Source: Candidatus Doudnabacteria bacterium
Lineage (GTDB): Bacteria > Patescibacteriota > Doudnabacteria > UBA920
NCBI GenBank assembly: GCA_963837465.1
Contig: CAWINB010000004.1
Coordinates: 522,853-586,852 of the forward strand
Direction of reading: 5' to 3'
Length of the DNA stretch: 64,000 nucleotides
Shown: positions 15,292 to 54,390 of the stretch, in pieces
Layout: each line of letters starts with the position of its first letter
How positions within the stretch are numbered: position 1 is the first letter of the stretch
Program-made: the position numbers and the translations under genes
The notes under the pieces: model-generated
Told to the model about the DNA's origin: nothing
What the model saw: the letters and a program-made list of their open reading frames with translations, nothing else
The model's database searches: none

Positions 15292-15429
15292 CTGCGTCCC
15301 CCAAAAAATCTTCCCTGTTCCCGAACCTGTTTTTAAAAAATCAAAAAATTGTTTCCACCCCACAAACACAATGGGCTGCGCTAAGCGCAGCCCTTGGGAA
15401 AGTTGGAAAAATTCCTTTGTGTAATATCT
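15292..15429 (+). repeat. Serine-recombinase 3'-end module, copy b (remnant in the opposite orientation to SR1)
   Basis: CTGCGTCCCCCAAAAAATCT...GGGCTGCGCTAAGCGCAGCCC...GTGTAATATCT. Encodes a ...LFLKNQKIVSTPQTQWAALSAALGKVGKIPLCNIL remnant (ORF 15285-15479). Confidence 0.6.
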
Positions 15430-18783: not shown

Positions 18784-18805
18784 CAATTTTTGATTTTAAA
18801 ATTAT

Positions 18806-26700: not shown

Positions 26701-26703
26701 AAA

Positions 26704-28605: not shown

Positions 28606-29719
28606 GCTTTTCAGGTTTCAAGTTAATTCGCTTAAAAAAAACTTCTGTAACCGTACTTAAATCATAAGAATGGATCTCTTCTTCTCCCTCAAATTCATTC
28701 AAAACAATCGTTATGTTTGGAAACTTGAGAATTTCCATCTTATCTTCCATTTCTTTTCTTTTTTCTTTTGAGTGTAAAAATATGAAAATCCGCAGTGTCG
28801 GATTTGATTTTGCAACCCGTTTAGTTATTTCTTTAATATGTTGGTCTGTCATTGAAAAGCCAATCACAAAGAGAACAGAATTTACACGTTCTAATTCACT
28901 AGAATATGAGCGTAATAACTCATAATAATATTTATTTAGTACTGTTTCAGAAAACTTTGCACTCTCTGGATTTACAACAAGTATTTTTTCTTTATAATCA
29001 TCTGTAAACCTTTTCCCAGTCCTTTTTAACAACTTACTATCAAAATGATCAAGCTTAGAAGAAAGCAATATTTTTCTATCTTCTCCTGTCTTGCTGGTTT
29101 CATATTTCCAAGTAAGCGAACCATGAACTTTTAAAATATTAAAAATTGGGATTTCTGATTTATGATCAAAATGCAAACTTCTCTGAAAGACAGATTTTTT
29201 AAAGTTAGATAAAGAAAACGTAGGGTTTAATCTTCCTGAAAAACCATCATTATAATCAATGAACAAATCTTCTAAAGTTTTTTCAAAAAATGGATCAATA
29301 TTTGTAGTAAATATGTTAACTTGTTTATTAAGTATGGTAGTTTCTCTTTCTAAAATTAGCTTAGTTATTGTTTGCAAAAATTTTTCATAAGATTTTTTTG
29401 TATCCCTAAAATCAATTTCTTCAGTCCTGTCCTCACCGTTACTATTTTTTAAACTATTTCCTGTTGCATTTTTTATGGAATCTGTTGAAAATTGTTGTGA
29501 AAAAACCTTTTTATTTGGAAGCATTACCGTTTCTATATACTTTTTATAACCTAGTATTTGCTCTTTGGTTTTGTTGTCCCTAATTGCATTATTTATTTCG
29601 CTTTCAATACCACCTAAGATTGGCAAGAATGGAGTAGAAATACCAGCACCAAAAAGAAAGTTCACATTCGAACTCTGAATTATTTCTTTTAGTTCTGTTA
29701 TAAATTTATCTTTTTTCAT
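28598..29719 (-). CDS. SIR2-like NAD-binding domain protein, defence-associated
   Basis: 373 aa. VNFLFGAGIS (sirtuin GAGIS Rossmann motif) and LKVHGSLTW (catalytic His in the HG motif). Confidence 0.65.
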   Translation of the reverse strand: MKKDKFITELKEIIQSSNVNFLFGAGISTPFLPILGGIESEINNAIRDNKTKEQILGYKKYIETVMLPNKKVFSQQFSTDSIKNATGNSLKNSNGEDRTEEIDFRDTKKSYEKFLQTITKLILERETTILNKQVNIFTTNIDPFFEKTLEDLFIDYNDGFSGRLNPTFSLSNFKKSVFQRSLHFDHKSEIPIFNILKVHGSLTWKYETSKTGEDRKILLSSKLDHFDSKLLKRTGKRFTDDYKEKILVVNPESAKFSETVLNKYYYELLRSYSSELERVNSVLFVIGFSMTDQHIKEITKRVAKSNPTLRIFIFLHSKEKRKEMEDKMEILKFPNITIVLNEFEGEEEIHSYDLSTVTEVFFKRINLKPEKHE

Positions 29720-29725
29720 ATACCT

Positions 29726-30928
29726 CTATACAAACAACCCTTGCATCAAGCCTTTTTTCCATTGCTCGGCTTGGGTGATTTGTTGTTGTTTAGATTCTAT
29801 TACATTGTCGACCGAAGTTAAAAAATCTGCGATTTTTTGCTGTTCCGGAAGGGTTGGAACGGGTAATTTTATATTTGAATATTTAGAAATCCAATGCCTG
29901 CCGTGTCCGCCAATTTCATATTTAATTTGGGTCATAGCTTCATATATAAATTTTATATCGGTCCCATCTTTTGCTTTTAAAATTTTCATCGCCGATGATT
30001 TAACTTTAAATGGAAAATCAACAAACTGCGATGTTGTAGTAAAATCATCAAATATTATTACAGGCAAATCAGTTGTCAGAAAAATTCCACTCGTTTCGTC
30101 TGTAAATCCCAATATAAAAGTTTTACCGGCAGTTAAAACAGGGGTTTTGTAACTACTATCGTATTCTGTGCTTTTTACAATATAATTAGTTGGCTGTTCA
30201 TAATCTAAGCAATCCGCCAACTTTTTCCCTTCCCATTTGGGAAAATCTTTTCCTTTTTCATTTTTAAAACGGATTTCTTGGGAAAATATTTTTTGTACTA
30301 TTCCTTTTTTGTAGGATTCAAAAGATTCTTTTTGCTTTTTTAAATTTTCTATCCACTCATCAACTGCCCCAACAAAACCTATTAACTTTTTTTGTTCGGG
30401 CAATGAGGGTGTATGAATACTAAAATTAGAAACTTGGGCCAAAGAAATATTACTTTGAGCCAATCCTACTTTTAGTCTGTTAATTTGGTTTTGAATAAAA
30501 TCCGAACGCAAAACTTCCCTTATATATTTTGAACTAACCCCACTTTTTGGTGAAATAATCGCAAGTGCCTGGTTTGTATTGGCAGGTAGGACATCTTTAT
30601 TAGCCATCACCACCCGCCCAAGAGCCCCAGCAATTGAAAACAAAATATCACCTTCTTTTAACTGAGACCTTTTTAAGGCCTGATTACAATTTTCATCAAT
30701 ATGAGCAAATTTATCAATTAAAAAATTGCCGTCTTCGGTAATTGATTCAATCTTAATAAAATTAATTCCGCTCTTAGTATAGTTAAACCCCAACGTAGTC
30801 GGGGTAGTCCCTTTTGTAATTCTATCGGAAATATCCCCCAACTTTTTTTCCTCCCACTCACCAGAAAAACCCGGAAAGCGGAGTTTTGGGATTTTTTTAT
30901 TTTGCAGTTGTGCGGCTTTTGCTGGCAT
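29726..30928 (-). CDS. hsdS: Type I R-M specificity subunit
   Basis: 400 aa. Two target-recognition domains separated and followed by conserved LPSLPEQKKLIGFV... and LPVPTLPEQQKIADFLTSVD helices. Confidence 0.8.
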   Translation of the reverse strand: MPAKAAQLQNKKIPKLRFPGFSGEWEEKKLGDISDRITKGTTPTTLGFNYTKSGINFIKIESITEDGNFLIDKFAHIDENCNQALKRSQLKEGDILFSIAGALGRVVMANKDVLPANTNQALAIISPKSGVSSKYIREVLRSDFIQNQINRLKVGLAQSNISLAQVSNFSIHTPSLPEQKKLIGFVGAVDEWIENLKKQKESFESYKKGIVQKIFSQEIRFKNEKGKDFPKWEGKKLADCLDYEQPTNYIVKSTEYDSSYKTPVLTAGKTFILGFTDETSGIFLTTDLPVIIFDDFTTTSQFVDFPFKVKSSAMKILKAKDGTDIKFIYEAMTQIKYEIGGHGRHWISKYSNIKLPVPTLPEQQKIADFLTSVDNVIESKQQQITQAEQWKKGLMQGLFV

Positions 30929-30930
30929 AA

Positions 30931-32508
30931 TTAAAAAGGTTTGTTGATTTTTAGTTCCTCACAAAATTCCGCAATCTTTTTTTGTAGACTTAACTCATTT
31001 ATGTTTAATTCTTTGAGTATCTTAGCAACGCTTTCTATATCAATAATCTCTTCTTCTTCAAATGTGTCCACATAGCGCGGAATGTTTAGGTTGTAATCGT
31101 TTTCTTGAATTTCTTTTATGGTTGCGCGGTGGGAATACTTTTCTATTTCTTTTCGGTCTTTATAGGTTTCAAAAATTTTGGCGATGTGTTCATTTGTTAA
31201 ATAATTTTGATTACCTCTCTTTTCAAATTCTATGGAAGCATCAATAAACAAAATATCTTCATCATCTTTGCGGCATTTTTTAAAAACAAGAACTGTTGCG
31301 GGAATGGAGGCTCCATAAAACAGGTTTGCCGGCAGGCCGATAACCGCATCCAAATAGTTTTGTTTTTCTATAATATATTTTCTTATGTGGCCCTCCGCAC
31401 CGGACCTAAAAAGCGCGCCATGAGGCAAGACTATGGCCATTGTGCCGTTGTCGGCAAGGTGGTGAAGCATATGAGTTACAAAGGCATAGTCCGCGGCGCT
31501 TTTAGGTGCCAGTCTGCCGTATTGGGAAAAGCGGTCATCGTGCGCTAGGGCTGGATCTGTGTCTCCTTTCCACTGGGCGGAAAAAGGTGGATTGGCAACA
31601 ATCGCCTCGGCCTTTAGGTCTGGGTACATATCTTCTTTAAGCGTATCGCCTTGGCGAATGGAAAAACGAGTAAAATTTATCCCGTGCAAAATCATATTCA
31701 TTCTGGCCAGGTTGTATGTAGTTGGATTAAGTTCTTGCCCGTAATAATTAGCTACGTCCGTAAATTCACCAAGACGAAGCAAAAGGGAGCCGCTACCACA
31801 GGTTGCGTCGTAAGCAGATTTAATACGTTTTTTATCTAACGAAACAATTTGTGCAAGCAAACGCGATATTTGAGCGGGGGTGTAATACTCGCCGCCTTTT
31901 TTACCGGCCCCGGCCGCAAATTCTCCAATTAAATATTCGTAGGCATCACCTAACAGATCGCTCTTAGCGTCTTCAAGTTTAAAATCAATACCCGCTAGAA
32001 GCGTTAGCACTTCCACAACAACTTCGTTCTTTTCGTTTTCCCGTGAACCCAGCTTTGAGGAAGCAAGGTCGATATCATCAAACAAGCCCTTAAAGTCGTC
32101 TTCGCTTGCTGTTCCGGCGGAGGTCTTTTCTATATCGTTAAGGATATTTTTAAGATCCTCAAGAATAAAGGTTGTTTGACCCTTTATTTCACCTTTCCCT
32201 TTTTTAACCAGGTATGAAAAAAGTTCCGTCGGTTTAAGATAAAAACCAAGCTCGTCAATACAAGCCTGTTTTGTATGTACCAGATATTCCCGGCCTTCTG
32301 CCGCAGTTTCTTTTACTTGGTCAAAAGTAATTTTGTCGCTAACTAAAAGTTTTTCATTTACATAGCGCTCCAGCTTTTCAGAAAGATATTTATAGAAAAT
32401 AAAGCCAAGAATATAGTTTTTATATTCATCAGCGTTCATCTTCCCGCGAAGCACATTCGCAACGCCCCATAATTGTTTTTCTAACAGCCTTTTTTGTTCT
32501 TCTGACAT
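30931..32508 (-). CDS. hsdM: Type I R-M N6-adenine DNA methyltransferase subunit
   Basis: 525 aa. HsdM N-terminal domain; catalytic motif IV VANPPFS; SAM motif DATCGSGSLL. Confidence 0.9.
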   Translation of the reverse strand: MSEEQKRLLEKQLWGVANVLRGKMNADEYKNYILGFIFYKYLSEKLERYVNEKLLVSDKITFDQVKETAAEGREYLVHTKQACIDELGFYLKPTELFSYLVKKGKGEIKGQTTFILEDLKNILNDIEKTSAGTASEDDFKGLFDDIDLASSKLGSRENEKNEVVVEVLTLLAGIDFKLEDAKSDLLGDAYEYLIGEFAAGAGKKGGEYYTPAQISRLLAQIVSLDKKRIKSAYDATCGSGSLLLRLGEFTDVANYYGQELNPTTYNLARMNMILHGINFTRFSIRQGDTLKEDMYPDLKAEAIVANPPFSAQWKGDTDPALAHDDRFSQYGRLAPKSAADYAFVTHMLHHLADNGTMAIVLPHGALFRSGAEGHIRKYIIEKQNYLDAVIGLPANLFYGASIPATVLVFKKCRKDDEDILFIDASIEFEKRGNQNYLTNEHIAKIFETYKDRKEIEKYSHRATIKEIQENDYNLNIPRYVDTFEEEEIIDIESVAKILKELNINELSLQKKIAEFCEELKINKPF

Positions 32509-32602
32509 AAATATATTTTATAGCTACTTTTATAGTATATACTCTCTTGCTAAATTAATTCCGAAATGTTAGACTAAGGCTAATAACCTTAACCCTAACA
32601 AA

Positions 32603-33022
32603 ATGTACCAAATAAAATTGTCGGTAAGCGAGCTTAAGAAGATTAAACAACTACAAGAAAAGGAGAAAAATGCCAGAGTTTTGCGCCGTCTTGAAGCCAT
32701 AAAGCTCTTAAGCCAGGGGCAAAGCCATCAGGAGATCGCGGAAGCGCTGAATGTATGCATGGATACAATCACAGATTGGGTAAAAATTTACCAATCAGGG
32801 AAACTCCCAGGATTATGTGAACTGCAATTTAAAGATAAGCGAAAGTCAAAAATTAATGATTATGTAGAGCAAATCAAACAGGATGTAAAAGACAACACCA
32901 TTACGACTTTAGCTGAAATGCAGGCCTGGATTAAGGAAAAGTACTCAATTGAAATGGAACAAAGCTGGTTATGGCGTTGCTGTAAAAAAAACTCAATTTA
33001 TCTTACAAAAAAACCCGTATAG
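32603..33022 (+). CDS. IS630 transposase OrfA (HTH part)
   Basis: LRRLEAIKLLSQGQSHQEIAEALNVCMDTITDWVKIY is a Tc1/IS630-type HTH. Ends just after A AAA AAA (33007-33013). Confidence 0.75.
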   Translation: MYQIKLSVSELKKIKQLQEKEKNARVLRRLEAIKLLSQGQSHQEIAEALNVCMDTITDWVKIYQSGKLPGLCELQFKDKRKSKINDYVEQIKQDVKDNTITTLAEMQAWIKEKYSIEMEQSWLWRCCKKNSIYLTKKPV

Positions 33023-33639
33023 TTCCCAGCGGCGCGCCGACACAGGAAGTTCAGAAGGATTTCGTAAAGTTCATTCTTAAAACCATAAAGAAAGCCAATG
33101 AGGATAAGGATATTGTACTATTTTTAGACCCCGCCCACCAAGTCCACAATGTTGATAATAGCTACTGCTGGCAACTTAAAGGTAAAAATGAAACCAAAGC
33201 CGTGCCATCCAATAGCGGCCGGGAAAGATTGACCGTCATCGGTGCCATTGGCGTGGAAAACTTCAAACCGACTATTCTGACGACGACCGATAACTGTGAT
33301 GGGCAAATGATGACGGTATTTTTAGGGGAAATCAGAAAAGATTATCCTGAAGCCCAAACCATATACATTTTCCTGGATAACGCCAAGTACAACCACAGTA
33401 ATTTGGTAACAGCGGAAGCAAAACAGTTAGGTATTGAACTGTTGTTTTTGCCGCCATATTCCCCAAACCTTAACTTAATTGAACGGCTCTGGAAATTCAT
33501 GAAAAAGAAAGTTAAAGCCAATAAGTATTACAAAACTTTTGTTGAGTTTACAAGCGCTATACATGATTTTTTTAAAAACATCGCTCAATACAAACCGGAG
33601 CTTGAAAAACTGTTAACCCTTAATTTTGAGATCATATAA
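32986..33639 (+). CDS. IS630 transposase OrfB (DDE part, via -1 programmed frameshift as an OrfAB fusion)
   Basis: The -1 frame is open from 32986: ...KKTRIVPSGAPTQE...LFLDPAHQVH...IYIFLDNAKYNH...PPYSPNLNLIERLW (D, D, E). Confidence 0.7.
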   Translation, partial: KKLNLSYKKTRIVPSGAPTQEVQKDFVKFILKTIKKANEDKDIVLFLDPAHQVHNVDNSYCWQLKGKNETKAVPSNSGRERLTVIGAIGVENFKPTILTTTDNCDGQMMTVFLGEIRKDYPEAQTIYIFLDNAKYNHSNLVTAEAKQLGIELLFLPPYSPNLNLIERLWKFMKKKVKANKYYKTFVEFTSAIHDFFKNIAQYKPELEKLLTLNFEII

Positions 33640-33853
33640 TCGGAATTAATTTAGCAAGAGAGTATATCTTAATTTTATCACTTTTTAAGCCTTTTGGACA
33701 ATCTTAATTTAAAGCCCCGGGCTCTGTTAAAGAGCCCGGGGCTAGGCAAAAATTACAACTTTTTTAACAGCTTATGGCCACAACAAGACAAATCTTATAG
33801 CCGCTGGTCGATATTAACGATTTGGATATATAATACTCGCAGAAAGGAACTTT

Positions 33854-34299: not shown

Positions 34300-34741
34300 G
34301 TCTTCACCTCCCCATTTTTTTCCTGTTTTCGGTCTTTCTTCCACCCCCCCCATTTTCCCCTCTCTGTTTCCTTTGTTTTTTTGGTTTGTTTTAAGTTAGT
34401 TTAGTATATTTGTATTTAGTATTTAAGTATTTTAAGTATAGTATTTAGTAGTATATTGTTTTTAGTATTATTATCTATTTTGTCGTTCAGTTAGATTATC
34501 TGGTGATATATAGTAGTCAGGGGTATTTGGAGTAGTGAGAGGTAATGGAATTAAGGGGTTTAACAGCCAAACTGTATGAATGATGTTCATACAGCTGTTC
34601 ATACAGCTGGAAAGTACCAGTTGCTTCCATTTTAGGCTAAAGTTTTGGCCTCGGCAAGGGTGTATTGCAGGGGGTAATGGGGTAGGCAAAGTTAGCTGTT
34701 TTGGATATAATAGGTGTGAGCTTCACTAAGAAAATTCACCA
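34300..34741 (-). repeat. 0.5-kb repeat family, copy 2 (reverse orientation)
   Basis: Reverse complement of the core seen at 15430. Boundary ...AAAATTCACCA at 34741. Lies downstream of SR2. Confidence 0.7.
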
Positions 34742-34997
34742 AAGCATTTTCACCGCCTGCGTAGGCGGTTTTTGCTTGAAAAATATGCGAAAGTTTTGGG
34801 GTTGTAAATGTTTGATAATTGTAAATTGGTTTTTTAGGAAAAATCAAACCCATGAGTTTTGTTTTTTGCCAGTAAGTTGTCTTAGGCCAGAGCGTGGGCA
34901 AGTCTACGAGGAAGCCGAAGACAAAATTAATAGTGCGCTCAACATCAAAATTTTGACCGCTGTGAGTGTAGTCTTGTAAATCTAAGCTTCTATCCAT
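34692..34997 (-). CDS. Hypothetical ORF spanning the SR2-to-repeat junction
   Basis: 101 aa. C-terminal VNFLSEAHTYYIQNS is repeat-derived. Doubtful as a gene. Confidence 0.2.
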   Translation of the reverse strand: MDRSLDLQDYTHSGQNFDVERTINFVFGFLVDLPTLWPKTTYWQKTKLMGLIFPKKPIYNYQTFTTPKLSHIFQAKTAYAGGENALVNFLSEAHTYYIQNS

Positions 34998-35000
34998 GAG

Positions 35001-36287
35001 CTAACCTTTAACTCTAGCAAAGTCAATTTTAAAATCCTCATCAGGCAGTATATTTCTTTTAACCAAATCTAACAGCCGGTCTTTTTCTTTTTCTAATGAG
35101 GCAACTTGTTTTTTAACTACTTCTTTCCTTTGAGCTAGTTCCTTTGAATGACCGCCCCAAACATCTAAAATGACCTTTTTAAAGGCATTTAAGACTTCGG
35201 CATTCGGAGTAACCCCTTTTAAACACTTATCAAATTCGTCCTCTAGTGTTTTTTTAGCGATAGCTTTTTTGGAGGGGCAGACTTTATGGTAACAGCGGTA
35301 GTAAGGATAAAGGCCACCTAACCTGCCTTTGGAAAAACAGGCAGTTAAGGGACGGCTACACAATCCGCAGTCCACTTGGTGTCGCAGGGGGAAAGCTTCA
35401 TCTGTTCGGCTACCGGCTATGCAATCGCCTTTGGTAGTTTTAGGAAATTGTTTTTGATTTTTGTAATGGGTTTCTTCGCTGATGAGTGCAGGGTGAGTGC
35501 CTTTAAACTCCCCAAATTTGCTAACAATAATACCGCAGTAAAACTTTGAGGCTAAAATTTTATGAATGAGTTGGGTTGAAATCTCTTTACCCTTTTTGCT
35601 TCTAAGTCCCAGCTTGTTGGCTTTCTGCCGTAGCTCTTCTTGGGTATACATTCCAGAGGAAAATTCCTCTAACAAAAATTTGATTATATTACAGCGTGTT
35701 GAGTCTAATACTATGGATTTGTCTTTTTTGCCGTGATTTTGGTTTAAGTAACCAAGCGGAGCGTGGTGCGGCGAACGGCCGGATTGCAGACACTTGATTA
35801 TGCCGTCGGTAACTCTTTCGCTTCTAACATCGTTATCCAGTTGGGCAATGCTGGCCATCATGTTCCCCATGAACTTGCCAAAAGAATTATTGCCAATAGC
35901 TTCAGTGGTAGAAACTAACTCAACATTAAGTTTATCCAGCAAACCTTTAATGGCCGAATAGTCATTGACGTTCCTTGAGAGCCGGTCAACCTTGTTAACG
36001 ATAATGAAGTTGATTTTGTTTTTCTTGTCAGCTACAAATTTCAGCATGTCTTGCAAGCCAGGTCGGTCAGCGGTCTTTGCAGATTCTCCCTCATCGGAAA
36101 ATAACTTAACGATGGTTATGCCCTTGTCATCGGCGTATCTCTGGCAGGCTTCTTTTTGGTTATCCAAACTAAAACCGTCCACTTGGTCAGCTGTGGATAC
36201 TCGATAATACATTACGCCATTTTTCAAATTTTCTTGAGCCATAAGTTTAAGCCAAAATATTATACACCCTTTCGCTCCTTGTCCCAA
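35001..36287 (-). CDS. Large serine recombinase (SR2)
   Basis: 428 aa. N-terminal MYYRVSTADQVDGFSLDNQ...VNKVDRLSRN resolvase catalytic domain, recombinase domain, Cys-rich region CGLCSRP...YYRCYHKVC. Confidence 0.85.
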   Translation of the reverse strand: MGQGAKGCIIFWLKLMAQENLKNGVMYYRVSTADQVDGFSLDNQKEACQRYADDKGITIVKLFSDEGESAKTADRPGLQDMLKFVADKKNKINFIIVNKVDRLSRNVNDYSAIKGLLDKLNVELVSTTEAIGNNSFGKFMGNMMASIAQLDNDVRSERVTDGIIKCLQSGRSPHHAPLGYLNQNHGKKDKSIVLDSTRCNIIKFLLEEFSSGMYTQEELRQKANKLGLRSKKGKEISTQLIHKILASKFYCGIIVSKFGEFKGTHPALISEETHYKNQKQFPKTTKGDCIAGSRTDEAFPLRHQVDCGLCSRPLTACFSKGRLGGLYPYYRCYHKVCPSKKAIAKKTLEDEFDKCLKGVTPNAEVLNAFKKVILDVWGGHSKELAQRKEVVKKQVASLEKEKDRLLDLVKRNILPDEDFKIDFARVKG

Positions 36288-36402
36288 ACCTCATAAGATA
36301 TTTCTGCAAACTGGTACATATCAAGACGCAGCTGCTCAATTTCTTGGTCAGTCAGTGTGCCTGCAAAGTCCCCCAGCGAATTTTTGAATTCATCTAAGGG
36401 AA

Positions 36403-37242
36403 TCATGGCTGTGAGGCTTTGTTTGTTAAAAAGCTTGCTGTATCAAAGCCGTCAGGAAATTGTAAAGTAATCTTTTTTATTTCCCTGCCGTCCAAAGAAA
36501 CAAACGGTTCATGTTCAATGACCTTACATTTGGATAAATCAATCCTATCTAAAACTTTTAAATTTCTGTTGTGGTCTAAACTGGCTTCGGGTTTTTTAAG
36601 TCCCCTTGAACAAAAATATCTTTTTCTAAATTTTTTATGCTTCTTGTCAAAATCTTTTCTGATATACTTGGCGACATAATTGGCTAAGTGGTCTAAATTT
36701 TTAATCTTCTTACCCACGACTGAACCTTGCGCCCAGAGCTTTTGGAAAGTCTTAAAAATATCCGTTATATGGGGCATATTCAAAAACACTGCGTGATAAT
36801 GCACTGACCCGCCGTCAGGTTTTATTTTGCCGTAAAAATCTACATCCTTTTGAAATTCCGGCACACAAATATAACAAAGTTTTTTACCTGTTTTTTTAAA
36901 ACAGTAATAATTAAAGCGTTTAATAAAATTTTTCCAAATGGGATGAGCGACATCAAAGCTGGTGGTGCTTTTGGCAAAGGTGAAAGTATAAAAATATGGG
37001 TTATGGGGCTTCTGCGTCTGCGAATTAAAGTATTGCCAGCCATTGCGTTTGAGTATTTTTCTAAGGCGACTTCTGGATTTGCTAATACACTCAGCAGGAT
37101 TTTTAATAACATCGTCATCAGCCAGCCTAGCCGTACGCCTTACTTTGCCCTTGGGGGTAAAATCAAAGCCAATGGGTTTATCAAATTCCAATAAATCCAT
37201 GTGCGAACCCTGAAAGATAATTTTAAGTTTGGTAGTTTTCAT
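36403..37242 (-). CDS. Rolling-circle replication initiator, Microviridae gpA/VP4-like (HUH superfamily I)
   Basis: 279 aa. Motif I FYTFTF, motif II SVHYHAVF (HUH), motif III ANYVAKYIRKD with two Tyr 4 residues apart, as in the phiX174 gpA active site. Confidence 0.6.
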   Translation of the reverse strand: MKTTKLKIIFQGSHMDLLEFDKPIGFDFTPKGKVRRTARLADDDVIKNPAECISKSRSRLRKILKRNGWQYFNSQTQKPHNPYFYTFTFAKSTTSFDVAHPIWKNFIKRFNYYCFKKTGKKLCYICVPEFQKDVDFYGKIKPDGGSVHYHAVFLNMPHITDIFKTFQKLWAQGSVVGKKIKNLDHLANYVAKYIRKDFDKKHKKFRKRYFCSRGLKKPEASLDHNRNLKVLDRIDLSKCKVIEHEPFVSLDGREIKKITLQFPDGFDTASFLTNKASQP

Positions 37243-37420
37243 ATCGCCCTATGTTTATCCAGTAACAAGTAATACCGGCGGCAGGTGCCAGCGTCCGCGC
37301 GTCTAAAGCCGCGCCGGCCGCAGGACACCTGCGCCGCCAAAAGGCCAAACTAAAAAAAGCCGACCTTTTAAGGCCAGCTTACTAAACTGCTATCCTGCTA
37401 AATTTAGCTGAATGTTAGTT

Positions 37421-38257
37421 TTAGTTTAAATACTTGGAATTTATCTGCATTTTGCCTTGTTTTTTAGAATAGTTAAAAATAAGAAAATCGCCAATGCCTG
37501 TTTCCTTTAAAATCTTATTTTGTATCTTTTCGCAGGCCGTGGTATAACTGGACAGTTTATATTCCTCATCCAGTATGCCCTCGGCTACTTCTGTATAAAA
37601 AAATTCGCTATGCAAATCGCCATAAGCAAAAATATACCGCATAATCCGATATTCGTTGGTAACACGCTTCTGGCCTTTAATGGGGACTACGGCTCCGTTG
37701 ATAAATAAATTGCCGGTATCTACATCAAAGCGAAGGCCTTTTTCTTTTGATTGCCTGACACCGTATTGGAGTTTGCCAAGCTCAAGAGTTAGGTAACGCT
37801 GGATTTTATTGATTTTGTGTGGCAAATTTTTTCTGAAATAGTAATTGTCCCGTTTGGGTTTGCCTGCCTGCAAATCCTTAATGCTTTTGACCATATCAAT
37901 TTGTGCAGGAAATAAATCCTCCTCGGGCGTATGCAGTCGGTAATCATTTAAGGCTTCTTTGGTAAAAGTCAGCTCGGTGAAATCCTCAGAAATATTGGTG
38001 TAGAGCTTCATATCCAAAATCAATTTCATCAAGTCATATTGCCTATCATTTAGGGCTTTGGGAATCCTGCGGCGGGTTTCCCATAAATCGTTATGTTCTT
38101 TTTCCACTAGCTCGTTTAAGACCGGGGAACTTTCCACAAAATTAACATATTTTTCAACATTTAAAACAAAATTAAAATCCACAGGCTTATTTATAACCGC
38201 TTCAAAATGTTGTTTCAATTCTGTTTCTAGTAGTTCTAATTTTTCCAAAGTAGGCAT
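37421..38257 (-). CDS. Hypothetical protein
   Basis: 278 aa, same strand as Rep and SR2. No recognisable motifs. Confidence 0.4.
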   Translation of the reverse strand: MPTLEKLELLETELKQHFEAVINKPVDFNFVLNVEKYVNFVESSPVLNELVEKEHNDLWETRRRIPKALNDRQYDLMKLILDMKLYTNISEDFTELTFTKEALNDYRLHTPEEDLFPAQIDMVKSIKDLQAGKPKRDNYYFRKNLPHKINKIQRYLTLELGKLQYGVRQSKEKGLRFDVDTGNLFINGAVVPIKGQKRVTNEYRIMRYIFAYGDLHSEFFYTEVAEGILDEEYKLSSYTTACEKIQNKILKETGIGDFLIFNYSKKQGKMQINSKYLN

Positions 38258-38610
38258 GGGTATATTATGCCTTATATACAGGGAAAATCAAATGGCTGAA
38301 TGTTCAATAAAACAGGGTTAATTTTATATACTTGGCTTAAATATAGTATATTTAAGTAGCTAATATTGACTTTTTCTATAAAAAGTGCTATAATGTATAT
38401 TCAAAACTAGAAATGGTTTTGAGAGCCAGTATTATCAAATGCCAATAGGCGTTTAATAATCGGCACGCACTTTGACAACTCAAGAGAAATTTTTAGCACC
38501 AAACTTTCACATTTTGTTTTTCCATTCCCTTTTGGCATTTTGCGGCAGAATTTTTTCTGCCATAGAGTCCCAAAAGGGAACAACGTGGCAACCCCACGTA
38601 GGAAAATCAA

Positions 38611-39240
38611 ATGACAAAGAATTTTTTCGACACGGAGTTTGCCACTGTCGTGCTCCCCGATGGCACGACCAAAGTAACGCCGATATCAATCGGCATCACA
38701 GATGAGAGCGGCCGCACTTACTACGCCGAGTTTGTCGGCGGGAGAGAAGCCGCCAACTCCTCTGAGTGGTTGCGAAACAACGTTTTGCCGCATTTGAAAA
38801 GCGGCACGGGGTTTCGGCAGGGAGACCCCCTGGAACTGAAAGGGTACATCATCGCTAACGCCGGATGGTTTGACGAAGGCTCCCCGGCCTTCGTTGAAAA
38901 ATCTCCCGAGACGATTGCTCGAGAAATCGAGCAGTTCTGTGGAGGAGAAATTCCGGAGTGGGTCGCCAGCTACGGGGCGTTTGACTTCGTGCTTTTATGC
39001 GGAGTCTGGGGCGGCATGATGAAAATGCCGAAAGATTGGCCGTGCCGCTTCACGGAAGCGGCGGGACTCGAATTGCCCCGTGTGGAGCGGGTGGGCGGGG
39101 AGCATAATGCTCTCAATGATGCATGCACGCTTCGAAAAGCGTGGATGCAAAAATACGCTCTACCGCCGGAAGTCAAACCCGTGGAAAAGAAGAAATGGTT
39201 TTCATTCTTCTCTCTCGGGCAAACTCGAGCGGCCGAGTAA
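38611..39240 (+). CDS. DEDDh-family 3'-5' exonuclease (DnaQ/RNase T-like)
   Basis: 209 aa. Exo I FFDTEF; Exo III GGEHNALNDACTL (H-x4-D). GC about 55%, clearly above background. SD AGGAAAA upstream. Two hairpins (38517-38580; ACGTGG-CAACC-CCACGT) just before the start. Confidence 0.6.
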   Translation: MTKNFFDTEFATVVLPDGTTKVTPISIGITDESGRTYYAEFVGGREAANSSEWLRNNVLPHLKSGTGFRQGDPLELKGYIIANAGWFDEGSPAFVEKSPETIAREIEQFCGGEIPEWVASYGAFDFVLLCGVWGGMMKMPKDWPCRFTEAAGLELPRVERVGGEHNALNDACTLRKAWMQKYALPPEVKPVEKKKWFSFFSLGQTRAAE

Positions 39241-39261
39241 GTTGCAAACATTTTCTCTTGT

Positions 39262-39312
39262 TTTGTCTTTCCCCGGAATACAGCACGCACAGCTGTTGTT
39301 CCGGGGATTTTT
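39262..39312 (+). terminator. Rho-independent terminator after exonuclease gene
   Basis: CCCCGGAATACAGCACGCACAGCTGTTGTTCCGGGG followed by ATTTTTTATTTTTTT. Confidence 0.5.
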
Positions 39313-39323
39313 TATTTTTTTAT

Positions 39324-40913
39324 CTAAATAATTGCTGAAATGACCTGTTCAAATTGTTTAAACTCGCTTATAATAAGGTTGTAATTCTGAAAACAGTAGT
39401 CCACCAAATTAAAACATTTAGGGTTTTCAGAGTAGGATTTACGGGCGGCACATAGTGCCGCCCATTGTGTTTGTGGGGTGAATTCAATTTTCCCATTCTG
39501 CAAAAACAGGTTCGAACCAAAGACTTTTACTGCAAAGGATTTCTTGTCTGCAAGGGAGGGGCTGGTTGCGATTTCGTTGAGGGTTTGTGCGGTTTTTGTA
39601 AATTCTTTGAGAGGTTCTAACCACGCTTTGTCCTTTTTTTCAAGACGGGCAATTTGCCCCTCCAAAGACTTCTTTTCGGACACTAAGTTGTTCTTGTCGG
39701 TACGGTAGTCCTGTCGTTCAATATCCTGGTCAAGGTACATATCTTTCAGTCTTAGGAGCTTGCGGTCAATGTCCTGTATTTTTAACCGCAAATCTTGAAC
39801 AAAAGTCGCGGTGATATTAGTAGATTCTTTTTCATCTTTATCAATCAATTCCAGCCATTGTTTTTCCCACTCTGGGGGCATGGCGTAGTTGGTAAGTAGC
39901 TTGGATAGCTGCCGTTCTAATTCCTCGGCCCTTATACAGGGCTGGGAGCACGGCTGTCTGCGTTTACCGCAGTGGTAATAGGTATAATAATGGGTATTGC
40001 CGTTTTTTTGGTGCTTGGTCTTGTTCTCAGCCGTAATCATACAATGGCATTCGGCGCAGCGCAACAAGCCGCAAAGAGGCTGGGGGGCAAAGACTTTTAC
40101 CCTGTTCTTGCTCCGCTGTTTTAAGATCTCCTGCACCTTGTCAAAAAGCTGCTTGGAAACCAGCGGCTCATGCTTGCCCGGGAAAAGTTCACCGCCATAG
40201 CGGAACAAGCCGCAGTAAAACGGATTGGCCAGAATGTAAGCGGCTTGGTCACGCTTTACGGCTCTGCCCCCAATACCATTTTTTACATTAGTTTTCTTGG
40301 TTTCAATACCATTGGCAAACAAAAACACCGAGATGTCTTCCAAAGAAAAACGGTTTTGCGAATAGCGTTCAAAGGCTTGTTTGATAATGGGAGCTTTATG
40401 TTTGTTTAGGATAATTGACTTATTTTTTAAGTCATTAAGGTAACCAAGGGGAGCCAAGCCCGGATATTCCCCACGTCTGGCTTTTTCATAAAGTCCACGT
40501 TTGGTATTCGTGCTTAAATCCCGAATATACTGGTTTGCAATCCCAAATTCTACGTTCATTAACATGACATTATCAGCCGAGCGGTAACTGCGGTCATGAG
40601 TTTGAATGTGCTGAATGATTCCTTCTTGGAGCAACCACTCTATTTGAGCGGCGTCTACGGGGTTACGGGCAAGTCGGTCCAGTTTCCAGCAAATAATGCC
40701 ATGGGCTTCGCCCTGCTCAATACGGCGGAGCATTTCGTTAAAGACAGGGCGTCCTGGGCGCTTGGCTGATTGTTTCTCCACAAACTCCTCGGATATATTT
40801 AGCCCTTCAGTTTTAGCCAAAGTCCTTAAAACGGCTAGTTGGTCTTCAATAGACCGAACCTGCTTGTCTTCAACGTCGGTGGATTTGCGGGCGTAGAGGA
40901 AATAGTTTGGCAT
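39324..40913 (-). CDS. Large serine recombinase (SR3), paralog of SR1
   Basis: The ORF runs to 41054 but the likely start is MPNYFLYARKSTDVEDKQVRSIEDQ. Alignable with SR1 along its whole length. The C-terminal coding region carries the variant hairpin GGGCGGCAC-ATA-GTGCCGCCC. Confidence 0.85.
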   Translation of the reverse strand: MPNYFLYARKSTDVEDKQVRSIEDQLAVLRTLAKTEGLNISEEFVEKQSAKRPGRPVFNEMLRRIEQGEAHGIICWKLDRLARNPVDAAQIEWLLQEGIIQHIQTHDRSYRSADNVMLMNVEFGIANQYIRDLSTNTKRGLYEKARRGEYPGLAPLGYLNDLKNKSIILNKHKAPIIKQAFERYSQNRFSLEDISVFLFANGIETKKTNVKNGIGGRAVKRDQAAYILANPFYCGLFRYGGELFPGKHEPLVSKQLFDKVQEILKQRSKNRVKVFAPQPLCGLLRCAECHCMITAENKTKHQKNGNTHYYTYYHCGKRRQPCSQPCIRAEELERQLSKLLTNYAMPPEWEKQWLELIDKDEKESTNITATFVQDLRLKIQDIDRKLLRLKDMYLDQDIERQDYRTDKNNLVSEKKSLEGQIARLEKKDKAWLEPLKEFTKTAQTLNEIATSPSLADKKSFAVKVFGSNLFLQNGKIEFTPQTQWAALCAARKSYSENPKCFNLVDYCFQNYNLIISEFKQFEQVISAII

Positions 40914-41144
40914 ATATTTTTGTTTAAAATTAAAGGGGCAACCCTGGCTGTCCAACTCCACCAAACAGTCGTCTGGCTTCGCTGGCAGGGTTGCCACCTT
41001 AAAAGCGAATATACAAAATAAAAGACTGTTGGTAAATATGGAATTGGACAGCAATAGTATTATATCACAATTTTGTGACTAGGAAAAAAGTGCTATAATT
41101 AAGGCAATAAAATCATTGTCTGTACTTATTTAACTTTAGGTAAA

Positions 41145-41786
41145 ATGAAAAAGAAGACCAGGCAGAAAAAAGTTGAAGTGCCAAAAAAATACCTTGATAA
41201 AAAGGGTACTTTTTGTGTTTATGATGTTTATGAAAAGAGCAAAAAAACAATTTACTATGTCCGTGGTAGCCAAGCTAAACAATTACCTCAAATAACATTA
41301 GATGGTTTTACAGATTTACCGTCAGGACTTTATCTATATAAAGAAGGTTATGGTTTCGGCAAAAAAGGGACTTTTCTGCTATCTGCGATAAGAAAGCATA
41401 TCATTAAATCCGATAAAGTATTTGAATTAATAGTTTCAAAAAATAAAAAGAAAGGTATAAAAAATAGCTCTGTCGGAACTTGCGTAACTTTACCATACGA
41501 TGACGTAAAACAGCTTCTGGCGAGGTTGGGTGGGATAAACGAACAAAATAATGATGAATTAAGGGAAGAAGTTGGTTCTTTTTTGAGCACAAAATTTCCG
41601 AAAAGAATCAACCTTTCATCCAAAAATTTTGATGAATATAAGGCCGGGGAAGTTTACTCAATGCTTTCAAAAAAGAAAGTTGCGCAAAAATTGAATGAGG
41701 ACGATTTGGATGCTCTGAACTGCTCTGATTATACCGTACCACTTCGACCGTTTTTGATGAGAGGTTTTAGAGCGGTCTTGGTGTAG
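41145..41786 (+). CDS. Hypothetical lysine-rich protein, 3' end replaced by IS3 terminus
   Basis: 213 aa. The last ~20 codons run into the IS3 inverted repeat that begins at 41734. Confidence 0.35.
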   Translation: MKKKTRQKKVEVPKKYLDKKGTFCVYDVYEKSKKTIYYVRGSQAKQLPQITLDGFTDLPSGLYLYKEGYGFGKKGTFLLSAIRKHIIKSDKVFELIVSKNKKKGIKNSSVGTCVTLPYDDVKQLLARLGGINEQNNDELREEVGSFLSTKFPKRINLSSKNFDEYKAGEVYSMLSKKKVAQKLNEDDLDALNCSDYTVPLRPFLMRGFRAVLV

Positions 41787-42690
41787 GCCATCGGCGGTTT
41801 GTAGCCGATGCTGCTGTGTAATCTTCTATAATTATAGTAGTTAATTTTCTTCTTTACAAACTTAATAACTTCGGTTAAATTGGTCAGCTCAGATATCTCG
41901 CTTTGCAGCTCAGTCTTAAACCTGCCAAAGAAAGATTCCTGTCCTGGATTGTCCGTTGGAGTGCCAGGCTTGGAAAAAGATATCTTGCCGTGTCCCAGTA
42001 TCGCTTCCACATAACTGTAACCGGTATACTGACTGCCCCTGTCCTGATGCCAAATCATTTTCTTAAATAATCTTTTTAACAGTTTGGGACAAGGTGGGAG
42101 TCGGCTGATAGTTTTTAAAGCGCTGCAAAACGAATTTAAGACTAAAGTTTCTTCCATGTTGTCATCAATATCGTATCCGTAAACTGCTTCCCCTAAGTTG
42201 TCCTTATGTACACACAAGTAAGCTTTTCCGGTTTTGAACTTCAACTCCGTAATATCCGAAGTAACGGCCTGCAAGGGTTTGGTGATATTAGCCTTTAAAA
42301 GTAAGTTGGCTTTATCTCCTAAAGCATTTAAAGTTTTTTGAATAAAAGTATCTTTATTCTTTTTAATATTTCTAGGTAGACTAAGGCCCCAAAGGTTGCT
42401 TAATTTAGCCACTTTATCTCGGCCAATAGTAATGCGCTTGTTATCGTTCAGCTCATAGTAAAGCCTTCTTATTCCATAACCAGAATTATCTTTTATGACT
42501 TTGACAAAGACTGCTTTTAAATGTTTATGGGCAATTTCAAACTTTTGGGTTTTATCACAGGCGTGGTAGTAAGTGTCCTTACTGATATTAAAGAGTTTAC
42601 AGATTTGATTAATCCCAATTCCATCCTGGCCGGCAAACTTGCGACAGTATTCGGCGATGCAAAGCTTGCTTACCCCTGACTGTCTAAAAA
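41729..42690 (-). CDS. IS3 transposase OrfB (rve DDE domain; expressed by -1 frameshift from OrfA)
   Basis: HQDRGSQYTG...KPGTPTDNPGQESFFGRFKTE...YYNYRRLHSSIGYKPP. The frame is open upstream to 42694 and overlaps the orfA end. Confidence 0.7.
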
Positions 42691-43064: not shown

Positions 43065-43315
43065 GAAAGCCAGGACAGATCAAAGTTCAATGCTCGTCCT
43101 GCTGATATTGTATAAATTTTATGAATGGATTGAGCTAAAACTACCCAGCCTAAGGACATCGGACCCGTACATTCTTATTGTACTGCTCTTAATCCTTTTT
43201 CTGTATTCTTACAGGAAGCAAACACAATATATTACAAAAAGGATTAAGACAAATAATGGGCAATAATTTTTTTATTTTTGTTTCTCTTGCGTCTTGTGTT
43301 CTGCGCCCTGCGTCC

Positions 43316-43457
43316 CCCAAAAAATCTGCTGCACAAAAAATCTTTGGCTCGCACCTGTTTTTAAAAAATCAAAAAATTGTTTCCACCCCACAAACACAAT
43401 GGGCTGCGCTAAGCGCAGCCCTTGGGAAAGTTGGAAAAATTCCTTTGTGTAATATCT
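43316..43457 (+). repeat. Serine-recombinase 3'-end module, copy c (remnant)
   Basis: 142 bp. One mismatch against the reverse complement of 12484-12625. Encodes ...PKKSAAQKIFGSHLFLKNQKIVSTPQTQWAALSAALGKVGKIPLCNIL. Confidence 0.65.
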
Positions 43458-43968
43458 TGGTGAATTTTCTTAGTGAAGCTCACACCTATTATATCCAAAA
43501 CAGCTAACTTTGCCTACCCCATTACCCCCTGCAATACACCCTTGCCGAGGCCAAAACTTTAGCCTAAAATGGAAGCAACTGGTACTTTCCAGCTGTATGA
43601 ACAGCTGTATGAACATCATTCATACAGTTTGGCTGTTAAACCCCTTAATTCCATTACCTCTCACTACTCCAAATACCCCTGACTACTATATATCACCAGA
43701 TAATCTAACTGAACGACAAAATAGATAATACAAAAAGAGAAACTGACTACAAAAAACTATACTAAAAAATACCAATATACTAAACTAACTTAACTATACC
43801 CTAAAAAACAAAGAAACCCAAAGAACCAAAACACAGCAAATCCAAAGACTACAATTAAAATCTCAATCTAAAACCTAAAAAATACCAAAAACATCAAAAC
43901 CTAAAAATCAATACAAAAGTGGGGGTGGGGTTACCCGCCGAAAAAATCGGCGGGTCAGAGGGGGTGGA
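43458..43968 (+). repeat. 0.5-kb repeat family, copy 3
   Basis: Same boundary TGGTGAATTTTC and same 270-bp core as copy 1. Different AT-rich spacer. G-run box GTGGGGGTGGGG...CCCGCCG-AAAAAAT-CGGCGGG...AGAGGGGGTGGA. Confidence 0.7.
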
Positions 43969-53541: not shown

Positions 53542-54390
53542 TTACAAACTGACGGTTATTTGCTTGTCTTTGAGGATTAATTTGCTTTTTAGGCAGGCCA
53601 TCAGTTCTCTCTTTTCCAGTAAACTACCGTCGGTCAAAATATATTTGGTATAATTTTTTAGGTCTAAATTTTTCTGTAGTAGTTGATCCTGCTGGCTCTG
53701 ACCTAATACTAAGTGTCGGAATTTATTATAGCTCTCTAGCTTTAGCTCTATCTGCTGTTTGATGCCCAGCTTATCCAAATCTACTTCCTCGATAACTTTT
53801 AGCAGCTGACCTACTAAGAGGTCTTCTTTAATATAGTTGCCTGGGCAAGCCCGGTCTTTACTCTTGGTACAGCAGTAGTATACGTATTTAGCTACCGAAC
53901 CGTCTTTGAGATTTTTAAACTTTTCATTGGCGCTTATGCTGGAGCTACAAATGCCGCATACTATGAGTCTGGTAAAAGCGAATTCTTTACCGATAGTTCT
54001 GGGCTTAAGCTCAGCATCCAAAGTTGCTTGGGCTTTATCGAACATTTCCTTTGTGATAATCGGCTGGTGCTTTCCTTGGAAATATTTTTTACTTCTTCGC
54101 GGATACTCAATCTGCCCGTAGTAGAACGAGTTCCTTAATAATAAATAAAGATTACTTAAGTGGAACGGCTTGCCATTTTTAGTTACAAACCTGACCTCAT
54201 CTCGCGGCCACAAGTAGACCCTCCGTCCGCTCTCGCCCTGCCCGACTTTTTCAAACACTTGCTTAACCACCGGCGCTCTAATTGGATCAGGGATTACCGA
54301 GCAAGGCCTGTCTTTATGATATTCGTTGACGTACTCGGTCGGAGCCATTCCCCTGCAAGGGTGTTTTGCAGGGGGTAAAGGGGTGGCCAA
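53542..54390 (-). pseudogene. Truncated large serine recombinase (SR4)
   Basis: 282-aa ORF keeps the recombinase domain, zinc ribbon (CGICSS...YYCCTKSKDRAC) and coiled coil. It lacks the resolvase catalytic domain; the N-terminal MATPLPPAKHPCRG is translated from a degenerate copy of the repeat core. Confidence 0.65.

Follow-up and report, generated by a model that had tools for sequence, protein, structure and literature searches.

A rolling-circle initiator and a large serine recombinase in a 4.67-kb element of a Candidatus Doudnabacteria chromosome

In a stretch of 64,000 nucleotides from a Candidatus Doudnabacteria bacterium (contig CAWINB010000004.1, positions 522,853 to 586,852; hereafter the window), we examined the gene for a rolling-circle replication (RCR) initiator protein, Rep (36403–37242, minus strand). 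This gene shares a unit of 4.67 kb (approximately 34737–39407) with the gene for a large serine recombinase (LSR). We cautiously favor the view that this unit is a discrete integrative rolling-circle element, which uses its LSR to integrate at the 3' end of a tRNA-Lys gene and carries its origin of replication beside rep. The homology, the motifs, and the fold of Rep, the limits of the element, its Rep–LSR–tRNA architecture, and an origin-like motif come directly from the comparisons described below. The contigs and loci compared with the window are numbered L001 to L126, and L001 is an independent Logan assembly.

The initiator protein and its family

The initial annotation of this DNA had described a 279-residue open reading frame (ORF) with rolling-circle motifs. 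We confirm this ORF, which starts with ATG and contains the motifs FYTFTF, VHYHAVF, and ANYVAKYIRKD. In an alignment with nine homologs, F84, T88, H148, H150, Y189, K192, and Y193 are invariant, among them both histidines of the HUH motif (H148 and H150), the conservation of which the annotation had named as a check. The protein belongs to the PF23343/pHT926 family: it passes the gathering cutoff of PF23343 (REP_ORF2-G2P; 55.1 bits, cutoff 27.8), stays below that of PF05840 (Phage_GPA; 13.3 bits, cutoff 31.4), and matches the RCR-initiator families phrog_3584 and phrog_3419 of the PHROG database. The best PDB matches of an AlphaFold (AF2) model (pLDDT 80.4, pTM 0.74) are HUH endonucleases, namely RepB of pMV158 (probability 0.99) and the Rep domains of circoviruses and geminiviruses, all of them modest (E > 0.001; 2e-3). 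Compared with its ortholog in L006 (73% identical), rep differs at 65, 36, and 138 nucleotides in codon positions 1, 2, and 3, which is consistent with purifying selection. Judged by these motifs and matches, Rep is a genuine two-tyrosine HUH superfamily I initiator of the phiX174/pC194 type. No second copy of rep was found in the 64-kb window.

The more specific label of a Microviridae-type protein comparable to a gokushovirus VP4 did not survive the profile comparison that the annotation had suggested. The likeness of the active-site stretch to that of phiX174 gpA is real, and all three motifs align with gpA by hhalign. With the family profile as query, the Rep of plasmid pHT926 nevertheless ranks first (E 5.9e-47 over 242 columns, nearly full length), ahead of the Rep of bajarodino virus 41, a member of the Inoviridae that encodes Zot (E 2.9e-35, 191 columns). 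The Rep of bajarodmic virus 717 (Microviridae) matches far less well (E 5.3e-15) and in 105 columns of the catalytic core only, and gpA itself reaches E 7.6e-5 over 126 columns. By tblastn, the best annotated matches were the replicases of the plasmids pGTG5 (1540 bp) and pHT926 (1786 bp) and a protein of an inovirus; a microvirus Rep appeared at E 7e-3. A structural search of BFVD gave TM values of ~0.6 for ORF2/G2P-domain proteins versus ~0.4 for microvirus Reps. The closest viral contigs (L063, L065, L067, L068, and L071) encode Zot-type morphogenesis ATPases and no capsid, and in a rough neighbor-joining (NJ) tree, LSR-linked and Zot-linked Reps are interleaved, while the microvirus Rep sits on a distant branch. 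Finally, tblastn of the window with three capsid queries (phiX174 F, the bajarodmic, gokushovirus-like major capsid protein, and SpV4 VP1) returned nothing credible, which agrees with the annotation in that a major capsid protein is absent. Based on these profile, structural, viral-contig, and capsid results, we regard Rep as an initiator of the phiX174 superfamily that is not specifically microviral. The likeness to Microviridae comprises the two-tyrosine HUH superfamily and the nick-site core ACTTG|AT; in contrast, only the catalytic core can be aligned, and capsid and pilot genes are absent from the Rep element, which has an LSR of its own. This case also cautions that a YxxKY motif alone is insufficient for calling microviruses, for the catalytic core is common to initiators of plasmids, filamentous phages, and integrative elements. 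The interleaving of LSR-linked, Zot-linked, and plasmid Reps offers a concrete case for studying the exchange of modules among replicons with single-stranded DNA (ssDNA).

How common such proteins appear depends on the search. A word-indexed search returned 9 relatives, from which Rep seemed very rare. An exhaustive profile search overturned this impression with 849 clusters at E <= 1e-30 and 2803 at E <= 1e-10. As far as sequence searches can tell, the wider Rep family is large, and rarity is limited to the close clade of the window's protein (at least 45% identity).

The element, its origin, and its relatives at tRNA genes

Read along the minus strand, the element begins with an attachment (att) arm termed Y, followed by a terminator-like hairpin, the cargo gene exo209 on the plus strand, a promoter-like site, the gene for a 278-residue protein (p278), a terminator, a GC hairpin with the motif ACTTGTT, rep, an ORF of 48 residues, and the recombinase gene SR2. 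The annotation had outlined a compact minus-strand unit made of a 278-residue ORF (37421–38257), Rep, an LSR (35001–36287), and a flanking repeat. These components are present, but the unit also holds a 209-residue exonuclease gene on the opposite strand and the 48-residue ORF. Likewise, the notion of a small integrated rolling-circle unit stands, but the proposed limits of 34300–38300 do not: the unit reaches to approximately 39407, and the repeat belongs to a neighboring element.

We delimited the element by means of the hexamer CACCAA (TTGGTG on the coding strand), which occurs at 34737, 38497, and 39402. On the plus strand, this core equals the 3' end of tRNA-Lys, and in junction alignments the similarity between junction copies switches exactly at the core. 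The copy at 34737–34742 marks the recombinase end, with the crossover point between the 3' end of SR2 and an arm of the neighboring element. The copy at 39402–39407 is a direct repeat of the first and forms the junction with the 3' end of the neighboring recombinase gene SR1, the ORF of which reads across it. Just inside this second core lies arm Y (39339–39401, minus strand), the far att arm of the element itself (P'-type). Over 68 nt inside the 39402 core, the identity to positions 25–92 of L126 amounts to 79%, and in that contig an unrelated cargo and then a 71% identical homolog of p278 follow. Since arm Y is conserved in L126 beside other cargo, we place the far end of the element at 39402–39407 and consider exo209 exchangeable. 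The same conservation rules out the CACCAA at 38497 as the far boundary. A reading of the att arms as dyad symmetry (TGAAAA/TTTTCA), made by eye, was dropped as over-interpretation. An orthologous element in L006, 73–80% identical, abuts tRNA-Lys, and there an SR2-type end is joined directly to this tRNA gene.

The recombinase gene SR2 extends over 34692–36242 on the minus strand, with a probable ATG start at 36242; the longest ORF begins with TTG at 36287. Its product shows the domains Resolvase (PF00239, 4e-34), Recombinase (PF07508, 1e-10), and Zn_ribbon_recom (PF13408, 1.6e-3, below cutoff), matches the phrog_95 integrase at 1e-79, and contains the catalytic-serine motif YYRVSTADQ, as read in the sequence. 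The limits of 35001–36287 assigned earlier are too narrow: the gene is interrupted by an in-frame TAG at 35001–35003, and past this codon the ORF resumes and continues to 34692. The uninterrupted 518-residue ortholog from L006 (81% identical; 68/54/206 differences by codon position) has Gln at this position, corresponding to a change from CAG to TAG, and the same stop is present in both assemblies, the window and L001. The last 16 codons of SR2 lie beyond the core, in the DNA of the neighbor. The ORFs of SR2 and of the L006 recombinase part right after the residues ALV (GCT TTG GTG, the core), and the latter runs into tRNA-Lys(ttt). For integrated microviruses, XerCD/dif is the route described. 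The proposal that a serine recombinase serves here instead is upheld by the LSR within the element and by the conserved Rep–LSR–tRNA arrangement described next.

Genes for a rep homolog and, following on the same strand, an LSR were found in L002–L008, L013, L017, L019, L021, L022, L024–L028, and L125. This arrangement recurs in approximately 18 independent loci, mostly in metagenome-assembled genomes (MAGs) of Patescibacteria with bin labels of Doudnabacteria, Campbellbacteria, Paceibacterota, Taylorbacteria, Saccharibacteria, and Nomurabacteria. Wherever the recombinase gene could be delimited (12/12), its ORF terminates within an oppositely oriented tRNA gene, with an overlap of 12–88 nt; the tRNAs concerned are Gly, Lys, Gln, Val, Glu, Tyr, and Ser. 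The units measure 3.7–7.5 kb and are delimited by direct repeats of the tRNA 3' end. Their backbone follows a common order of variable cargo (often on the opposite strand), a gene for p278 or another protein of 200–330 residues, a small ORF, rep, sometimes a further small ORF, and the LSR gene. Two contigs, L002 and L003, contain the same 4.6-kb unit (99.8% identical) with TTGGAGC at both ends and in different genomic contexts, at tRNA-Gly(ccc) in one metagenome and at tRNA-Gly(gcc) in another. These two contexts indicate that the unit has been mobile recently. The two tRNA-Gly anticodons targeted also suggest that its recombinase tolerates differences between isoacceptors. In L003 (12316–12658), the element occupies the first of four closely spaced tRNA genes (Gly-Phe-Val-Leu), and in L002, the same element is found at a solitary tRNA-Gly gene with the other anticodon.

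We surveyed 56 accessory proteins from 13 elements, some intervals of which were loosely set and include host genes. They matched 44 Pfam and 52 PHROG families, and the 25 most frequent of each were inspected. The matched families include DNA methylases, HTH, AIPR, SMODS, PIN, HD, GNAT, Panacea, and His-Me nucleases, and the cargo of L125 is a HindIII-type restriction-modification (RM) pair. None of the 25 most frequent families in this survey, from either Pfam or PHROG, is a virion family. In the literature searched, we found no description of a Rep–LSR–tRNA family or of such elements in the candidate phyla radiation (CPR). Defense-type cargo (RM systems, AIPR, SMODS, PIN, exonuclease), together with stacking of elements, makes a plausible route for the traffic of defense genes in very small genomes. 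The architecture also amounts to a compact kit of origin, initiator, integrase, and att sites mapped in seven tRNA species. Intact members, if functional, could seed shuttle or integration vectors for CPR/Patescibacteria (by MAG labels), where genetic tools are scarce.

The candidate origin lies directly upstream of rep. The heptamer ACTTGTT (37264–37270, minus strand) is situated 22 nt upstream of the rep ATG as a candidate nick site of a double-strand origin, with a predicted cut at ACTTG|TT. Directly 5' of it, a GC-rich imperfect palindrome of ~64 nt (37275–37338, minus strand) may provide the origin hairpin or the binding region for Rep. As DNA, it folds with -32.5 kcal/mol (z = -5.2), and 0 of 200 shuffled sequences were as stable. 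The palindrome is conserved in L126 and L006, and in these two and the window, the three closest copies, it is followed by the invariant block GTATTACTTG(T/A)T..CTGGATAAACATA. Among 20 loci, 13 carry ACTTG[ACT]T within 130 nt upstream of rep, where ~3% would be expected. These 13 include pGTG5, pHT926, and the contig of a Zot phage. Most relatives have GC hairpins before the motif; it usually follows right after such a hairpin and precedes a box resembling ACTTAAT(A/G)A. The annotated origin of phiX174 at position 4306, CAACTTG|ATATTAATAAC, shares the core ACTTG|AT. From the family-wide motif and this match we place the probable nick at ACTTG|TT (37270–37264, minus strand), and the hairpin with ACTTGTT (37264–37338) is a likely rolling-circle origin. 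The annotation had looked to the core of the flanking repeat for an origin and a nick site. The repeat contains no such features, and the hairpin with ACTTGTT is the better candidate, being directly upstream of rep and common to the family and phiX174.

Of the smaller genes, the 48-residue ORF between rep and the recombinase gene (36260–36406, minus strand) is conserved and was called in both L001 and L006. With 28/48 residues identical to the L006 copy and nucleotide differences of 11/9/25 by codon position, it is, by this measure, under purifying selection. Its position would suit a directionality factor or a regulator.

The protein p278 (37421–38257, minus strand; codon-position differences 67/39/130) is a frequent accessory of the family. 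Its homologs are encoded ahead of rep, on the upstream side, in L002/L003, L013, L125, and L126; three contigs with Zot (L067, L068, and L071) contain homologs as well. The corresponding ORF of L006 is unrelated, so p278 is not universal. We found no match for p278 in Pfam, PHROG, or PADLOC. In its structural model, the conserved C-terminal ~100 residues (pLDDT 74–92) resemble winged-helix DNA-binding domains of the OmpR/ToxR/SaeR type (probability 0.87–0.96, but E 0.15–0.24), while the N-terminal 170 residues are of low confidence. The model thus suggests a probable winged-helix protein with a C-terminal DNA-binding domain, which may serve as a DNA-binding accessory or regulator, or as an accessory at the origin or att site. 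Downstream of the gene, a hairpin with a T-run (37357–37380, minus strand) resembles an intrinsic terminator, and L126 and L006 retain its stem with some changes. Upstream, the -10 region of a promoter-like site (38264–38291, minus strand) is conserved in L126. In L068 (1–600), a gene for a LexA/S24-peptidase-type repressor lies beside the p278 homolog at the start of this Zot-bearing contig, which hints at SOS-linked control in the phage relatives. No repressor of this type is encoded in the window's element.

The cargo gene exo209 (38611–39240, plus strand) encodes a 209-residue DEDD-type 3'-5' exonuclease-like protein that matches phrog_2259 (1.3e-27) and, below cutoff, NCBIfam RNase_AS (1.7e-14). 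The gene is GC-rich compared with the rest of the element, and unrelated genes occupy the same position in L126 and L125. It is faced by a strong promoter-like site (TTGACT-17-TATAAT, with TG; 38366–38394, plus strand) and followed by a terminator-like hairpin (CCCCGG...CCGGGG) with a T-run (39271–39320), read from the sequence. In the leader of the gene, a hairpin with 26-bp arms (38525–38580; -32.9 kcal/mol, z = -7.6) is absent from L126. For this reason we assigned it, provisionally, to the cargo module and rejected it as a conserved single-strand origin, although it may yet act as one in this copy. PADLOC returned no matches for exo209, p278, Rep, and six island ORFs, and an Rfam scan of 33.5–44.5 kb gave one chance-level match and nothing else.

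Proposed life cycle and competing readings

According to the favored reading, the LSR would integrate a circular form of the element at the CACCAA core, the 3' end of tRNA-Lys. With the recombinase gene at the very edge of the element, its ORF would then run across the att site. For the window's element, the predicted circular junction is …GGTGAAAATGCTTTGGTG|GACTACTGTTTTCAG…. Once the element is excised, Rep would cut the circle at ACTTG|TT, next to the GC hairpin, and so initiate rolling-circle replication. Such replication would sustain the excised circle or multiply it, and its single-stranded product could be used for transfer. In this cycle, p278 would be a probable DNA-binding accessory or regulator and exo209 an exchangeable cargo. 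The copy in the window is probably immobile now, considering the CAG-to-TAG nonsense mutation in SR2 and the displacement of the tRNA partner site.

Several points weigh against this proposal. For all members of the family, we infer excision, the circular form, ssDNA, nicking, and replication of the circle. The premature TAG in SR2, found in both assemblies, means that the window's copy may be dead. Moreover, the Rep element is not beside the tRNA gene but sandwiched between two other elements, and the model of accretion that accounts for this position derives from junction sequences only. The binomial P of ~2e-15 for the frequency of the ACTTG motif is only indicative, for the motif was defined post hoc and several of the loci are related; the window has ACTTGTT instead of the commoner ACTTGAT or ACTTGCT. 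A convincing single-strand origin was not found in the element, where the only other strong hairpin is that at 38525–38580. The roles of p278 and the 48-residue ORF are deduced only, and the host taxonomy of the related loci depends on MAG bin labels. The search for Zot consisted of tblastn with three Zot proteins and of the summaries of the 25 most frequent families; it detected none in the window, in the Rep–LSR loci, or in these families, but could have missed a very divergent morphogenesis gene.

Small integrative elements that combine an integrase with an RCR-initiator-type protein are a known kind, represented by integrative mobilizable elements (IMEs) of Firmicutes and, with another integrase and transfer system, by the integrative and conjugative elements of actinomycetes (AICEs). 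The unit could therefore be an IME, in which Rep would act mainly as a relaxase that nicks an origin of transfer (oriT) at the same ACTTG site, with the pore encoded elsewhere and replication secondary. This reading, which we consider unlikely, overlaps with the favored one and differs from it in the primary role of Rep. In streptococcal IMEs, an integrase is accompanied by an RCR-initiator-like protein of the PHA00330 type that is read as a relaxase, but this relaxase activity is an interpretation in streptococci too, and 19 of the 21 streptococcal PHA00330 elements contain a coupling protein (PMC5357655, PMC5704250). In contrast, no TcpA/FtsK-type coupling protein was found in the window's element, in 13 related elements (by BLAST clustering), or among the 25 most frequent Pfam families. 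The plasmid precedent cited for the streptococcal IMEs is pHT926, the Rep of which is the best annotated match of the window's Rep; however, the nearest characterized homologs of Rep are replicases of plasmids with little beyond rep. An adjacent element (E3, described below) encodes a type IV coupling protein (15909–18783, apparently split) and a Replic_Relax relaxase (18806–19708), and monoderm-type type IV secretion systems (T4SSs) are carried by Patescibacteria (PMC12857230). The window's element has an integrase and no T4SS genes.

Comparison with individual systems refines this picture. IMEs with Rel_PHA00330, such as IME_SpnA45_tRNAleu (Coluzzi 2017, PMC5357655; Guedon 2017, PMC5704250), are likewise small and chromosomal, have serine or tyrosine integrases, and often occupy the ends of tRNA or conserved genes. 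They also share an initiator-like protein of the pHT926/phage type, accessory cargo, and composite accreted structures. They differ in their Firmicute hosts and in the TcpA coupling protein, present in 19/21 and not found in the Rep–LSR elements. For these IMEs we did not find described a backbone of p278, small ORF, Rep, and LSR or a recombinase ORF that enters a tRNA gene, a distinction that is drawn from descriptions, not sequences. The plasmids pHT926 (Brevibacillus borstelensis, 1.8 kb) and pGTG5 (Geobacillus, 1.5 kb) provide the best annotated Rep homologs and carry ACTTGAT upstream of rep. Unlike the element, they are free plasmids with essentially rep alone, devoid of recombinase, att site, and cargo. 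AICEs of the pSAM2 type (PMC2440964) integrate at tRNA genes, excise, and then replicate as rolling circles by the RepSA initiator. Some members of the Rep family give weak matches to RepSA (PF20199). AICEs are larger (9–24 kb), use mostly tyrosine integrases, and transfer double-stranded DNA by an FtsK-like Tra protein; we found no such translocase in the window's element.

Less probable still is a satellite or stripped-down derivative of a filamentous (Zot-type) phage, packaged as ssDNA by a helper in the manner of RS1, which is packaged by CTXphi. The closest viral contigs with related Reps encode Zot, p278 homologs occur in the Zot-bearing L067, L068, and L071, and LSR-linked and Zot-linked Reps interleave in the rough NJ tree. 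For CPR, published predictions include inoviruses that possess RCR Reps along with serine recombinases (PMC6813254). Filamentous phages (Tubulavirales; CPR inoviruses, Roux 2019, PMC6813254) thus resemble the element in their Rep family, in a p278-like gene of some contigs, and in occasional integration by serine recombinases. They differ by carrying Zot/pI and structural genes. Neither the window nor the LSR-linked relatives examined yielded a gene for Zot, a coat protein, or an adsorption protein, although coat proteins are too short and divergent for these searches. The five genes of the element are otherwise accounted for, and the 4.67-kb unit has no spare coding space. A conserved architecture that lacks Zot, with defined ends and defense-type cargo, is also unlike the random decay of a prophage. 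Within the 64 kb of the window, a helper phage did not appear, nor is there a known packaging signal.

The remnant of an integrated, gokushovirus-like microvirus that lacks its capsid genes is effectively excluded: microvirus Reps are detectable homologs (tblastn E 7e-3; hhalign E 5e-15) and the YxxKY motif aligns with gpA, but the match covers the ~105-residue catalytic core only, Reps of plasmids and inoviruses match far better, the microvirus Rep occupies a distant branch of the tree, a capsid homolog is absent from the window, and none of the ~18 related Rep–LSR loci shows a capsid gene.

Beyond the integrative rolling-circle element favored for the window, a broader idea, which we offer as doubtful, is that these units make up a phylum-spanning family of miniature integrative plasmids that has not been described before, is concentrated in Patescibacteria, and shuttles single defense or accessory genes between tRNA sites. 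Their recombinase would be split by its own att site, and their Rep/origin module would have been swapped repeatedly with filamentous phages and tiny plasmids. If so, integrated and excised forms would encode recombinases with different C-terminal tails (compare the 12/12 LSR ORFs that end in tRNA genes). This difference could be a built-in sensor of the integration state that sets the direction of recombination or the stability of the protein. In evolutionary terms, the family would then bridge plasmids, ssDNA phages, and integrative elements.

The composite island and its other genes

The Rep element is part of a composite island that extends from tRNA-Lys(ctt) (12407–12483) to holA (54769) and contains at least four LSR elements head to tail, of which it is the second. 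Ordinary chromosomal genes border the island: at one edge those for type IV pili, at the other holA, typA, and a transporter gene. The core CACCAA/TTGGTG is found at each junction, and the recombinase genes are SR-A (12392–14014), SR2 (34692–36242), SR1 (39324–41054), and a truncated one (53542–54390). In minus-strand reading, the stack starts with a degenerate remnant that includes the truncated recombinase (54694–53542) and ends at a core. It continues with E1 (53444–39408), which starts with a repeat termed R and ends with SR1, and with E2, the Rep element (~34737–39407), between E1 and E3. The last member, E3 (34742–12484), starts with R and ends with SR-A, which runs through tRNA-Lys.

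The copy of R at 34343–34736 (minus strand), the flanking repeat of the initial annotation, is the terminal arm of E3 and not part of the Rep element. R follows a recombinase 3' end and core at 15429, 34742, 43457, and 53444. As it adjoins four different recombinase ends, R was rejected as an origin or a part of the Rep element and is best read as a terminal arm of the SR-A/SR1 type. The recombinases show a gradient of decay, from the intact SR-A beside the tRNA gene to the nonsense-mutated SR2 and to truncated remnants at the far end. Such a gradient fits the entry of newcomers at the tRNA-proximal junction, where each one apparently came to lie between the tRNA gene and the recombinase end of its predecessor, an order of events deduced from the junctions.

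Arrays of the staphylococcal cassette chromosome (SCC) type, with Ccr large serine recombinases, are similar in that several LSR elements form a head-to-tail series at a single chromosomal site, each junction being marked by a short direct repeat. The NCBIfam models for CcrA/B give distant matches. SCC arrays target rlmH, in contrast to the tRNA 3' end in the window, and the Rep element has a replication initiator of its own.

E3 and E1 share an architecture in which inverted copies of the recombinase 3' end with the core bracket the recombinase module (12479–12626/15302–15434 and 39443–39546/43318–43421), and each contains the entire S-core-R unit once more as an internal inverted copy (15302–15839 and 43315–43925). 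This arrangement could represent an invertible recombinase module or an old duplication. Copies of R are 99–100% identical over 274–470 nt in alternating orientation (34469–34742 versus 43457–43730; 43458–43925 versus 53444–52975). They are far more alike than the surrounding genes, and the Logan contig L001 breaks exactly inside R. Such identity suggests recent gene conversion, inversion, or duplication.

The mobilization module of E3 (15909–19708) consists of the type IV coupling protein, apparently split into 15909–17534 (HerA/FtsK P-loop) and 17458–18783 (TrwB_AAD_bind/TraG-D_C), and the Replic_Relax (MobC-type) relaxase (18806–19708). E3 coordinates also include a type I RM system (23998–32508) with HsdR (23998–26700), HsdS (29726–30928), and HsdM (30931–32508). 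Between HsdR and HsdS, genes for a HerA-like ATPase (26704–28605) and a SIR2-like protein (28598–29719) are inserted. SIR2-HerA is a recognized anti-phage pair. The region of 27–30 kb is AT-rich (26–30% GC), which marks this stretch as foreign. An IS630/Tc1-type insertion sequence (IS) at 32537–33667 has perfect 28-nt terminal inverted repeats and a transposase in two frames (HTH, 32603–33022; DDE_3, 33202–33639), either by a frameshift or as a pseudogene.

The main cargo of E1 is a gene for a 2192-residue protein with He_PIG Ig-like domains (45199–51777), which contains internal DNA repeats at ~49.0–51.0 kb and overlaps at its 3' end the start of the ORF 44079–45329 by 131 nt. SR1 is a single ORF of 576 residues in the window and two genes of 160 and 377 residues in L001 (692–2418; 99.97% identical, one indel), a difference due either to misassembly or to a homopolymer that varies within the population. 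Also inside E1, a 227-residue fragment of an rve-type (retroviral-integrase-fold) transposase with a GTV start (41729–42412) partly overlaps the opposite-strand ORF 41145–41786; it probably represents the remnant of an IS.

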